NCBI RefSeq assembly: GCF_003334785.1
Contig: NZ_QOWV01000002.1
DNA length: 64,000 nt
Reading direction: 5' to 3' (one strand)
DNA from: Escherichia coli
GTDB lineage: Bacteria; Pseudomonadota; Gammaproteobacteria; Enterobacterales; Enterobacteriaceae
This document shows positions 1,575-50,386 of the stretch, piece by piece. The translations under genes were made by a program, and so were the position numbers. The notes beneath the pieces are model-generated. The model ran no database searches. It saw only the letters and a list, made by a program, of their open reading frames with translations, and had not been told where the DNA came from. Position 1 is the first letter of the stretch. Each line of letters opens with the position of its first letter.

Positions 1575-3158
1575 TCACACCTCGTACTCCATCTCGCCAT
1601 CCTTACGCAGCGGTATAATCTGCACCTTCTGCACGCGATGGCTTTCTACCTGCAACGTTTTAAGCAAATAATCCCCCACCTGAACTTCTTCGCCAGGTTT
1701 TGGAATACGCTGCAAATACTCCATCAACAGCCCGGCAATGGTGTGATATTCACGTTTTTCATCCAGCGGCAGCGGCACATATTGCACCAGATCCTCCAGC
1801 GGCATATGACCATTCGCCGTCCAGGAACCGTCCGCATTCTTCTGAATATCATGGCGGGCGTCGATCTCTTCCACTTCGTTCGGTAAGTTACCGGCAATGG
1901 TTTCAGTGACGTCACTTAATGTCACAATCCCTTCCACCGAGCCAAACTCATCCACCACAAAAGCAAAGTGCGTGCGGGCATTACGGAACTGCTCCAGGGC
2001 AGGTAACAACGGCAAGGTTTCCGGGAACACCAGCGGCTGGCGAATCAACACCCGCAGGTTGAGCGGTTCGCCGCGCAGAGACTGTTGTAGCAGGTCGATA
2101 ACGTGAACAACACCGAGCAAATCTTCTGCGTCATCACCGTCGGTAACCACCAGCCGCGTATGCTGATTTCGCTCCAGCAACTGGCGGATTTCTTCTTCCG
2201 GCGCGTTGAGATCGATATGCTCAATATCGTGGCGCGACGTCATAATGCTGCTGACGGTACGCTGGTTAAGATTAAGTACCCGCTCAATCATCCGCCGTTC
2301 CTGCGGATTAAAGATCTGCTGGTTACCATGATCCACCAGCATGGACGCGGTTTCGGCGTCCAGTTCCGCATCTTCTTTTTGCCCGCTAAGCAGGCGCATT
2401 ACCGCTTCGGTAGTCCGCTGGCGCAGCGTCTGGTTAGCGGAAAGAAAACGTCGCCGGTTAAAGATAGCCAACTGATTGAGCGCCTCGATCATCACCGAGA
2501 AACCAATGGCAGCGTACAGGTAGCCTTTCGGAATGACGAAGCCGAAACCTTCTGCCACCAGGCTAAAGCCAATCATCAACAGGAAGCTTAAGCAGAGAAT
2601 AACGATCGTCGGGTGACTGTTAACAAATTGCGTTAACGGCTTGCTGGCCATCAACATCAGGCTGATAGCGATAACCACGGCGGCCATCATGACCAGTAAA
2701 TGGTCGACCATCCCGACGGCGGTAATCACTGAGTCGAGTGAGAAAATGGCGTCCAGTACCACAATTTGCGTCACCACGCCCCAGAACTTCGCACCTTTGC
2801 GTTGTGTGGGATTATTGCTGTCTTTCCCTTCCAGCCGTTCGTTCAGCTCCATCGTGGCTTTGAACAACAGGAAGAAACCACCAAACAGCATGATTAAGTC
2901 GCGGGCGCTAAAGGTAAACGAGCGGAAGCTGAACAGCGGTTGAGTCAGGGTGACCAGCCAGGAGATTGACGCCAGCAGTAACAGGCGCATTAACATCGCC
3001 AGCAGCAGCCCGGTAACCCGTGCGCGGTCGCGCTGCTTCGGCGGTAGTTTTTCGGCGAGGATGGCAATAAAGACCAGGTTATCAATGCCGAGGACCAGTT
3101 CGATCACAATCAGCGTGATTAACCCGGCCCAGATAGACGGATCGGCAATCCATTCCAT
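1575..3158 (-). CDS. yegH: Inner-membrane protein YegH (TerC-type membrane domain plus CBS/CorC domains)
   Basis: ORF 1575..3224; hydrophobic N-terminal half and CBS/CorC-like C-terminal half; start placed at internal Met ([10 protein letters not shown]) to give the expected 527 aa. Confidence 0.8.
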
Positions 3159-3595
3159 AGTAAGTACAAAACCTATTCGTTGTATGACAAATGTCACAAT
3201 TCGATCATGGATAAATCGGGGCAAAAATGCAATGTTGCAGCACTATTTATCTCATATTATTTGAGGGTAATAACCTCACATTATCCCTGAATTAAAAGTG
3301 GTAATAATAAAACATTATTTAAGAAATATCGCATGTGGAGGCGCAATATTAAATATTGTCAACCTAAAGAAACTCCTAAAAACCATATTGAATGACACTT
3401 AATATAATTCTTAAAAATAGCCAATTACCGAATTGTTATCTTGCCTGCTATTCCGTTAGCTGTAACACTTCCTCCTGCATTATTGGAAAGCCAATATTCA
3501 ATTACCATAATGTCACCTTATATTCGGAAGTTAATTTCCGTAATAACCCTTTCTCATCAACGACTGCATGCTGAGAGGGTGTGAAAAATTAAACT

Positions 3596-3638
3596 AAATC
3601 AGTGTATTGGTAGCTAAAAAGCCAGGGGCGGTAGCGTG
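3596..3638 (+). promoter_or_regulatory. JUMPStart element containing the ops motif GGCGGTAGCGTG (3627..3638) in the wza leader
   Basis: Exact ops 12-mer read in sequence, about 180 bp upstream of the wza start; same element repeated at 28098..28136. Confidence 0.8.
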
Positions 3639-3816
3639 TCTGGATGCCTGAAAGACCAGTCTGAATTATTCTGTCAATAGCCTGCGGATGAAATCAATTT
3701 TTTTAGGACTGATGCCAGTTAAATTTTTATTCAATTAACTGCAAGGTAAATGTGCATGGCGACATTGCTATTAATAGTGCACAGGATAATTACTCTGCCA
3801 AAGTGATAAATAAACA

Positions 3817-4956
3817 ATGATGAAATCCAAAATGAAATTGATGCCATTATTGGTGTCAGTAACCTTGATAAGCGGTTGCACAGTACTTCCGGGCAGCAAT
3901 ATGTCGACGATGGGCAAAGACGTCATCAAACAGCAGGACGCTGATTTCGATCTCGACAAAATGGTGAATGTTTATCCGCTGACCCCGCGCCTGATTGACC
4001 AATTACGCCCACGCCCGAATGTAGCGCGCCCCAATATGACGCTGGAAAGTGAGATCGCGAATTACCAGTATCGCGTCGGGCCGGGGGACGTTCTTAATGT
4101 CACCGTCTGGGATCACCCGGAACTCACCACGCCAGCCGGTCAGTACCGCAGCTCCAGCGACACCGGCAACTGGGTACAGCCTGACGGCACTATGTTTTAC
4201 CCGTATATCGGCAAGGTCCACGTAGTCGGGAAAACGCTCGCTGAAATCCGCAGTGATATTACCGGGCGCTTAGCGACGTACATCGCTGACCCGCAGGTGG
4301 ACGTTAATATCGCCGCCTTCCGCTCACAAAAGGCCTATATCTCCGGTCAGGTGAATAAATCCGGTCAACAGGCGATCACCAACGTGCCACTGACTATTCT
4401 CGACGCCATCAACGCCGCAGGTGGCCTGACCGACACCGCTGACTGGCGCAACGTGGTGCTAACACACAATGGTCGTGAAGAGCGCATTTCTTTGCAGGCG
4501 CTGATGCAAAACGGCGACCTCAACCAGAATCGCCTGCTTTACCCCGGCGATATTCTCTACGTGCCACGTAATGATGATCTGAAAGTATTTGTGATGGGTG
4601 AAGTGAAGAAACAGAGCACCCTGAAAATGGACTTTAGCGGCATGACCCTGACTGAAGCCCTGGGCAATGCTGAAGGCATCGACATGACCACCTCCAACGC
4701 CAGCGGCATCTTTGTCATTCGTCCGCTGAAAGGCGAGGGCGGGCGTAACGGCAAGATTGCCAATATCTACCAGCTGGATATGTCCGATGCCACGTCGCTG
4801 GTGATGGCGACAGAATTCCGCCTGCAACCTTATGACGTGGTGTATGTCACCACCGCCCCGGTTTCCCGCTGGAACCGTCTGATCAATCAGTTGCTGCCAA
4901 CTATTAGCGGTGTCCGTTACATGACGGATACAGCCAGCGACATTCATAACTGGTAA
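3817..4956 (+). CDS. wza: Outer-membrane polysaccharide export lipoprotein Wza
   Basis: 379 aa; lipoprotein signal [21 protein letters not shown]; first gene of the cluster. Confidence 0.95.
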
Positions 4957-18215: not shown

Positions 18216-18293
18216 ACCGAGATGTAAATAACGACAAAAACAAAATTGGCCGTTTCGGTCAGGGCCAACTATTGCCTGAAAAAGGGTAACGAC

Positions 18294-22619: not shown

Positions 22620-22808
22620 TTGCCGGATGCGGCGTAAAACGCCTTATCCGTCCTACGGTTCTGTGCTCGGGACCTGTAGGCCTGATAAGACGCGTCAGCG
22701 TCGCATCAGGCACTGAATGCCGGATGCGGCGTGAACGCCTTATCCGGCCTACGGTTCTGTGCTCGGGTCTTGTAGGCCTGATAAGACGCGTCAGCGTCGC
22801 ATCAGGCA
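22620..22808. repeat. Tandem BIME: two near-identical units of about 100 bp, each with a pair of inverted REPs
   Basis: Motif gccggatgcggcgt.aacgccttatccg.cctacggttctgtgctcggg.cctgtaggcctgataagacgcgtcagcgtcgcatcaggca occurs twice in tandem. Confidence 0.75.
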
Positions 22809-26945: not shown

Positions 26946-27839
26946 ATGACGAATTTAAAAGCAGTTATTCCTGTAGCGGGTCTTGGGATGCATATGTTGC
27001 CTGCCACTAAGGCGATTCCCAAAGAGATGCTACCGATCGTCGACAAGCCAATGATTCAGTACATTGTTGACGAGATTGTGGCTGCAGGGATCAAAGAAAT
27101 CCTCCTGGTAACTCATGCGTCCAAGAACGCGGTCGAAAACCACTTCGACACCTCTTATGAATTAGAATCTCTTCTTGAACTGCGCGTGAAGCGTCAACTA
27201 CTGGCGGAAGTTCAGTCCATCTGCCCGCCGGGCGTGACCATTATGAACGTACGTCAGGGCGAACCTTTAGGTTTAGGTCACTCCATTTTGTGTGCACGAC
27301 CCGCCATTGGTGACAACCCATTTGTCGTGGTGCTGCCAGACGTTGTGATCGACGACGCCAGTGCCGACCCGCTGCGCTACAACCTTGCAGCCATGATTGC
27401 GCGCTTCAACGAAACGGGCCGCAGCCAGGTGCTGGCAAAACGTATGCCGGGTGACCTCTCTGAATACTCCGTCATTCAGACCAAAGAACCACTGGATCGT
27501 GAAGGTAAAGTCAGCCGCATTGTTGAATTTATCGAAAAACCGGATCAGCCGCAGACGCTGGATTCAGACATCATGGCCGTTGGTCGCTATGTGCTTTCTG
27601 CAGATATTTGGCCGGAACTTGAACGCACTCAGCCTGGTGCATGGGGGCGTATTCAGCTGACTGATGCCATCGCTGAACTGGCGAAAAAACAGTCTGTTGA
27701 TGCCATGCTGATGACAGGTGACAGCTACGACTGCGGTAAAAAAATGGGTTATATGCAGGCATTTGTGAAGTATGGACTACGCAACCTGAAAGAAGGGGCG
27801 AAGTTCCGTAAAGGTATTGAGAAGCTGTTAAGCGAATAA
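26946..27839 (+). CDS. galF: UTP-glucose-1-phosphate uridylyltransferase paralog GalF
   Basis: Start at [14 protein letters not shown]; flanks the O-antigen cluster. Confidence 0.9.
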
Positions 27840-28097
27840 TGAAAATCTGACCGAATGTAACGGTTGATAAGAAAATTATAACGGCAGTGAAGATTCGTGG
27901 CGAAAGTAATTTGCTGCGAATATTCCTGCCGTTGTTTTATATAAACAATCAGAATAACAACGAGTTAGCAATAGGATTTTAGTCAAAGATTTCCAGGATT
28001 TTCCTTGTTTCCAGAGCGGATTGGTAAGACAATTAGCGTTTGAATTTTTCGGGTTTAGCGCGAGTGGGTAACGCTCGTCACATCGTAGACATGCATG

Positions 28098-28136
28098 CAG
28101 TGCTCTGGTAGCTGTAAAGCCAGGGGCGGTAGCGTG
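28098..28136 (+). promoter_or_regulatory. JUMPStart element with ops motif GGCGGTAGCGTG (28125..28136) upstream of the O-antigen operon
   Basis: cagtgctctggtagctgtaaagccaggggcggtagcgtg read directly; near-repeat of 3596..3638. Confidence 0.85.
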
Positions 28137-50234: not shown

Positions 50235-50272
50235 CAATAAAAAAGCCCCCGGAAGGTGATCTTCCGGGGGCT
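50235..50272 (-). terminator. his attenuator terminator hairpin
   Basis: Minus strand reads agcccccggaag-atcac-cttccgggggc followed by UUUUUUAUU, between hisL and hisG. Confidence 0.85.
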
Positions 50273-50335
50273 TTCTCATGCGTTCATGCACCACTGGAAG
50301 ATCTGAATGTCTTCCAGCACACATCGCCTGAAAGA

Positions 50336-50386
50336 CTAGTCAGGATGATGGTGATGATGGTGGTGTTTAAATTGAACGCGTGTCAT
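50336..50386 (-). CDS. hisL: his operon leader peptide (MTRVQFKHHHHHHHPD)
   Basis: Minus-strand 16-codon ORF with seven consecutive His codons upstream of the attenuator. Confidence 0.9.
   Translation of the reverse strand: MTRVQFKHHHHHHHPD

Follow-up and report, generated by a model that had tools for sequence, protein, structure and literature searches.

Coordinates and conservation of the wza control region of the Escherichia coli colanic-acid operon, a probable meeting point of RcsAB activation and RfaH antitermination

Introduction

The closest described system to the locus examined here is the cps/wza control region of E. coli K-12 (Stout 1996; Wehland & Bernhard 2000), and two wider classes of operon share features with it. 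In the RfaH/ops operons (rfaQ/waaQ, rfb/O-antigen, hlyCABD, kps and tra), an ops element lies on the nontemplate strand within a long leader. The RcsAB-box promoters (rcsA, K. pneumoniae galF, E. amylovora amsG and S. Typhi tviA) are weak, are situated in AT-rich DNA bound by H-NS and have upstream of them a 14-bp box of the TaAGaatatTCctA type, of which the rcsA promoter carries two. Transcription of the colanic-acid operon itself has been described in terms of both a JUMPStart-RfaH mechanism and activation by RcsA/RcsB (PMC9976346).

We analyzed a window of 64,000 nucleotides (the whole stretch of DNA under study) from the chromosome of an O6-type E. coli strain, in which the spacer upstream of wza is the already known control region of the colanic-acid capsule operon. 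The locus is the same as that of K-12, with an identical RcsAB box and a JUMPStart in the leader, and nothing of substance differs, the strain being O6-type and not K-12. Navasa 2014 and Stout 1996 are reportedly the works cited for RfaH control of colanic acid. We consider it very likely that the region comprises a weak sigma-70 promoter activated by RcsAB, followed by a leader whose JUMPStart/ops element recruits RfaH, in front of the colanic-acid operon.

Judged by its sequence-level features, the locus falls into two classes at once, JUMPStart/ops and RcsAB-box. It resembles the other RfaH/ops operons in preceding a long surface-polysaccharide operon and in carrying ops on the nontemplate strand of a long leader, and its 12-nt ops, GGCGGTAGCGTG, is identical to those of rfaQ and wzx in CFT073. 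Unlike rfa and rfb, it has a promoter that is normally silent, repressed by H-NS and dependent on Rcs activation. Like the RcsAB-box promoters, the wza promoter is weak, is situated in AT-rich DNA to which H-NS binds, and has a 14-bp box upstream of it. The wza box differs from the other published boxes in its degenerate left half, which reads TAAAG for TAAG, in its lower score (8.1 bits compared with 11.9-17.1), and in being flanked by two box-like elements at fixed spacing.

The value of the locus is that of a positive control, a textbook case of Rcs-activated initiation and RfaH antitermination before a capsule operon, for which the phylogenetic footprint described below supplies exact window coordinates of the RcsAB box, core promoter and JUMPStart. 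The architecture proved to be fixed across Enterobacteriaceae. The analysis advances no open question; its only leads, both modest, come from the conserved leader blocks and from the additional conserved sites that resemble boxes.

Results

Extent and conservation of the yegH-wza spacer

Gene boundaries were taken from a RefSeq-annotated genome that is identical over the spacer, in which the order is dcd, asmA, yegH (-), then wza, wzb, wzc, wcaA (+). The yegH start codon in this annotation corresponds to window position 3158, and wza, the first gene of the colanic-acid operon (wza-wzb-wzc-wca...), occupies 3817..4956 on the + strand in both the ORF list and the RefSeq annotation. The intergenic spacer therefore spans 3159..3816 and measures 658 bp. 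A preliminary description of this DNA had given about 590 bp, a value too short; its boundary at 3225 derives from the end of a TTG-extended ORF (1575..3224). The same description had treated the whole spacer as an AT-rich leader of wza. The AT-richness was borne out, with a GC content of 0.31-0.40 over 3100..3900 compared with 0.50-0.59 in both flanking genes, and about 340 nt are predicted to be transcribed as leader, while the remainder is promoter and regulatory DNA of wza and yegH.

The spacer is carried at 95% identity or above by 4,818 of 5,426 complete E. coli genomes. Compared with K-12 MG1655, 3 of its 658 positions differ (3341, 3343 and 3345), all outside the elements named below. 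For comparison beyond E. coli, we fetched wza loci from 80 Enterobacteriaceae species and built a phylogenetic footprint from an alignment of 74 distinct upstream regions, using 73 Enterobacteriaceae species for measurements of spacing. The 74-sequence alignment shows variable, indel-rich DNA interrupted by near-invariant islands at the promoter, the boxes and JUMPStart.

JUMPStart and ops in the wza leader

The ops element reported in the preliminary description was recovered as an exact match to GGCGGTAGCGTG at 3627..3638, on the + strand, which is that of wza and is nontemplate. When up to one mismatch was allowed, GGCGGTAGCGTG had three matches in the window against 0.20 expected. The 12-nt element contains the ops consensus core GGCGGTAG and forms the 3' end of a complete JUMPStart of 39 nt (3600..3638, + strand; Rfam RF01707), in which a small hairpin lies 5' of ops and which is kept across genera. 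The match to RF01707 is full-length (model positions 1-38 of 38), with a score of 57.3 bits (gathering score 35) and an E value of 2.5e-12.

The end of ops lies 178 nt and its start 190 nt from the wza ATG at 3817, in agreement with the distance of roughly 180 bp given earlier. This placement is widely conserved: 74 of the 80 Enterobacteriaceae loci have GGCGGTAG about 190 nt ahead of wza, and the distance from ops to ATG, measured for 72 species, falls within 186-199 nt in 71 and is 189-190 nt in 46. The exception is Citrobacter amalonaticus L045, where an insertion of about 118 bp between ops and wza extends the distance to 308 nt.

We considered whether the ops match might have arisen by chance or be a relic, taking no part in the expression of wza. 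By itself the 8-mer is not diagnostic, since a perfect GGCGGTAG core occurs by chance inside yegH (3041..3048, + strand, antisense to yegH) without any JUMPStart context. In CFT073, 42 potential ops sites have been catalogued, and the majority (34, located in coding regions) show no RfaH binding (PMC9765446). At wza, however, the exact 12-mer is embedded in a full JUMPStart, sits on the nontemplate strand of a leader and keeps its place near -190 across species, and the occupancy of this site by RfaH in ChIP-seq effectively refutes the chance reading, which we regard as having almost no prospect of being correct.

The ChIP-seq data come from CFT073, in which wza is one of eight leader ops sites with RfaH signal (Hustmyer et al., PMC9765446). 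There, as in our window, GGCGGTAGCGTG is located in the UTR at -190 relative to the first gene and belongs to the nontemplate strand, and the RfaH signal is lost in delta-rfaH (PMC9765446). In CFT073, a sigma-70 peak is present upstream of wza and H-NS covers the promoter, which the wild type keeps silent; RfaH occupancy of the wza ops was detected only in cells carrying delta-hns and delta-stpA, in which the operon is derepressed (PMC9765446). Occupancy is thus seen only on derepression because the promoter is normally silent and repressed by H-NS. Taken with the JUMPStart match, the conserved promoter upstream of it and the description of the operon in PMC9976346, these data uphold the earlier proposal of a long wza 5' UTR under RfaH-dependent antitermination.

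Core promoter and predicted transcription start

Upstream of JUMPStart, the alignment contains a conserved pair of hexamers that we predict to be the wza (cps) promoter. The predicted -35 element, TTGCCT (3441..3446, + strand), is shared by at least 68 of the 74 sequences at every position. The predicted extended -10 element reads TGtAACACT in the window (3461..3469, + strand) and TGcAACAAT in most species, its TG and AACA being near-invariant. In every one of the 73 species, the two elements are 17 bp apart. The predicted -10 hexamer, AACACT, is weak, and TTGCCT-17-TGtAACACT falls below the threshold of a simple sigma-70 scan.

From the position of the -10 element, transcription of wza is predicted to start at about 3476..3479 (corresponding to about 2,137,581-2,137,584 in K-12), some 150 nt upstream of ops, which would begin near +151. 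The sigma-70 ChIP peak found upstream of wza in CFT073 agrees with a position of ops downstream of the start. Stout 1996 is said to have mapped the wza transcription start by primer extension. Our literature search using the K-12 coordinates of the predicted start yielded nothing useful. The preliminary description had named a start downstream of ops as the result that would count against its reading; the position of the conserved core promoter, upstream of ops, contradicts such an arrangement, as do the ChIP data.

The simple sigma-70 scan did call one site, TTGGAA-17-CATAAT at 3483..3511, as the sole sigma-70-like match (9/12), and wza transcription might begin from this site at about 3518. 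The call is not above chance, with 2 matches against 3.6 expected in shuffled sequences, and conservation is lowest in this indel-rich part of the spacer, whereas the TTGCCT/TGnAACA pair is near-invariant with its fixed 17-bp spacing. We therefore rejected 3483..3511 as the main promoter, on account of its non-conserved DNA and below-chance frequency, and regard a start at 3518 as very improbable. Because ops also lies downstream of 3518, the RfaH reading would be the same from either promoter.

A second promoter after ops has also to be weighed, in which GATAAT at 3785..3790 would serve as a -10 element for RfaH-independent basal expression of wza-wzb-wzc. GATAAT and the surrounding block 3779..3816 are near-invariant across 25 genera, and in one study a colanic-acid phenotype was enhanced when IS1 had inserted between JUMPStart and wza. 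Were this promoter real, part of the conservation of the leader would reflect promoter DNA. There is, however, no conserved -35 element or TG extension at the right spacing, the block 17 bp upstream being variable; the site was not called by the simple sigma-70 scan, and our searches found no data in its support. We consider a promoter at GATAAT unlikely, and retain TTGCCT-17-TGtAACACT as the predicted wza promoter.

The RcsAB box and flanking box-like sites

The preliminary description had expected an RcsAB box upstream of the cps promoter. We placed it at 3365..3378 on the + strand (hereafter box A), where TAAAGAAACTCCTA is letter-for-letter identical to the published E. coli wza box. Table S1 of PMC4381331 gives TAAAGAAACTCCTA as the wza box of E. 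coli/Shigella, citing Wehland & Bernhard 2000 and Stout 1996. Box A has 10 of 14 matches to the consensus TaAGaatatTCctA and lies at approximately -112..-99 from the predicted start. To judge from its title and citations, the study of Wehland & Bernhard 2000 reportedly established that RcsA-RcsB binds the wza box and that induction requires it.

Scanning the spacer did not by itself single out this box. Three candidates matched the consensus at 9-10 of 14 positions. In the scan with a position-weight matrix (PWM) that had been proposed earlier, for which we built the matrix from 13 other published boxes, the true box was scored (8.13 bits) and yet ranked only third, behind matches at 3400..3413 (9.99 bits, rank 1) and 3320..3333 (9.11 bits, rank 2). 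The scan alone is not decisive because about 9% of AT-rich random sequences reach the top score (P ~0.09 by chance against an AT-rich background). The position of the box is settled by the literature and by conservation, not by the scan.

Box A is held at 75-76 bp upstream of the -35 element in 63 of 73 species, and about 70 of the 74 sequences retain its right half, ATCCTA. Immediately 5' of it, outside the 14-bp consensus, lies an invariant TGTCAA (3357..3362), of which G3358 and A3362 are present in 74 of 74 sequences. This motif may extend the RcsA contact or may belong to another factor.

The two higher-scoring PWM matches flank box A. The proximal Rcs-box-like site, box B (TAATATAATTCTTA, 3400..3413, + strand), lies at approximately -77..-64 from the predicted start; in 60 of the 73 species it begins 41 bp upstream of the -35 element, and in 12 the distance is 40 bp. 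It is nearly invariant across the 74 sequences and forms the most conserved block of the upstream region, exceeding the published box in this respect. Boxes A and B have in common the right half-site A-T-C-(C/T)-T-A, followed by AAA. The right half-site of the RcsAB box is the half assigned to RcsB in the literature. Box B is a putative binding site for RcsB or RcsAB.

The distal Rcs-box-like site, box C (TAAGAAATATCGCA, 3320..3333, + strand), lies at approximately -157..-144 from the predicted start. It matches TaAGaatatTCctA at 9 of 14 positions, including 6 of the 6 capitalised core positions, and its function is putative. Most species of Escherichia, Citrobacter, Salmonella and Enterobacter have it in the form TAGGAAATATCGCA or TAGGATATATCGCA, with the -35 element about 120-122 bp downstream, and it has been lost in several outlying genera. 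A literature search with the box sequences found nothing useful. That box B, box C and TGTCAA, along with the conserved leader blocks downstream of ops described below, are undescribed functional elements of the wza control region is possible, and we put it forward tentatively, with more doubt than conviction.

The wza leader

The predicted 5' leader of wza is about 340 nt long (3477..3816, + strand), its start being placed from the -10 position. Its 5' third (3480..3595) varies in both sequence and length, such that the distance from the -10 element to ops ranges over 143-181 nt across species, while the distance from ops to ATG is nearly constant.

Four near-invariant blocks were found in the part of the leader after ops, across 25 genera: ATTATTCTGTCAATAGCC at 3665..3682, TTTTTAGGACTGATGCCAGTTA at 3700..3721 (with a conserved GGA at 3706..3708), ATTAACTGCA at 3734..3743, and a block at 3779..3816 that reaches the start codon (with a conserved GGA at 3784..3786). 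No covarying structure was detected in these blocks among the 25 genera. Over the leader, RNAalifold recovered the JUMPStart hairpin and some small invariant stems but nothing else, a single compensatory change being seen among 19 pairs, and the E. coli leader has no folding advantage over shuffled sequence (z = 0.62). Riboswitch-like or attenuator structures are not present in the leader, and no intrinsic terminator was found in it.

Conceivably, translation of wza is controlled through these blocks by a post-transcriptional regulator that has yet to be described, either an sRNA or a protein of the CsrA type. One published study is said to concern CsrA and colanic acid. The wza start codon is not preceded by a canonical Shine-Dalgarno sequence, only by a weak GUGA 10 nt upstream of AUG. 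The absence of a Shine-Dalgarno sequence is typical of RfaH-dependent operons.

Two small ORFs overlap the region. A 60-aa ORF at 3392..3574, annotated as "hypothetical" in a few genomes, was rejected as not coding because the indel-rich variable block lies within it. An 8-codon ORF at 3712..3738 is probably not a uORF, since its ATG is not conserved and reads ATA or ATT in 7 of the 25 genera.

Proposed course of wza expression

Combining the footprint with the published work, we propose the following sequence of events. The weak sigma-70 promoter of wza, embedded in AT-rich DNA, would be silenced by H-NS, as the literature describes, and binding of RcsA-RcsB at 3365..3378, also known from the literature, would switch it on, with the flanking boxes B and C probably assisting activation. 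Transcription would begin near 3477, and about 150 nt further on RNA polymerase would pause at ops, the end of JUMPStart, where the exposed nontemplate strand would recruit RfaH. The RfaH-modified polymerase would then resist termination and silencing along the operon of about 20 kb, and RfaH may in addition aid the recruitment of ribosomes to wza, whose start lacks a canonical Shine-Dalgarno sequence. In this scheme, the elements, their positions and their conservation are observations of the present analysis, and RcsAB binding, RfaH occupancy and H-NS silencing are drawn from the literature; the precise start of transcription, a part played by boxes B and C and the recruitment of ribosomes are inferred.

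Other features of the spacer and window

The yegH-proximal end of the spacer contains a conserved block at 3181..3209 that includes two published sites given for wza/yegH, both kept across genera: a CRP site, tgTATGAcaaatgTCACAatt at 3181..3201, from a Footprint-seq preprint (PMC12871828), and a PhoB ChIP-seq site, TGTCACAATTCGATCATG at 3192..3209, which was accompanied by no PhoB-dependent change in expression (PMC10294691). Two further conserved islands, AAATGCAAT at 3225..3233 and ATTTATCT at 3245..3252, are located upstream of the yegH start, at a distance of 70-95 bp, and are probably yegH promoter or regulatory DNA.

Elsewhere in the window, a second JUMPStart/ops element (28098..28136, + strand, 60 bits) is located between galF and the wzx of an O6-family O-antigen cluster, and this galF-JUMPStart-wzx order is the standard arrangement of O-antigen clusters. 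A box-like sequence, TAATGAAAATCTGA, is found upstream of it at 27837..27850. Rfam models scoring above their gathering scores also identified an algC RNA motif that falls within the colanic-acid cluster (18240..18289, + strand), naRNA4 (22679..22749, - strand), the His operon leader (50237..50360, - strand) and STnc240 (52658..52732, + strand).
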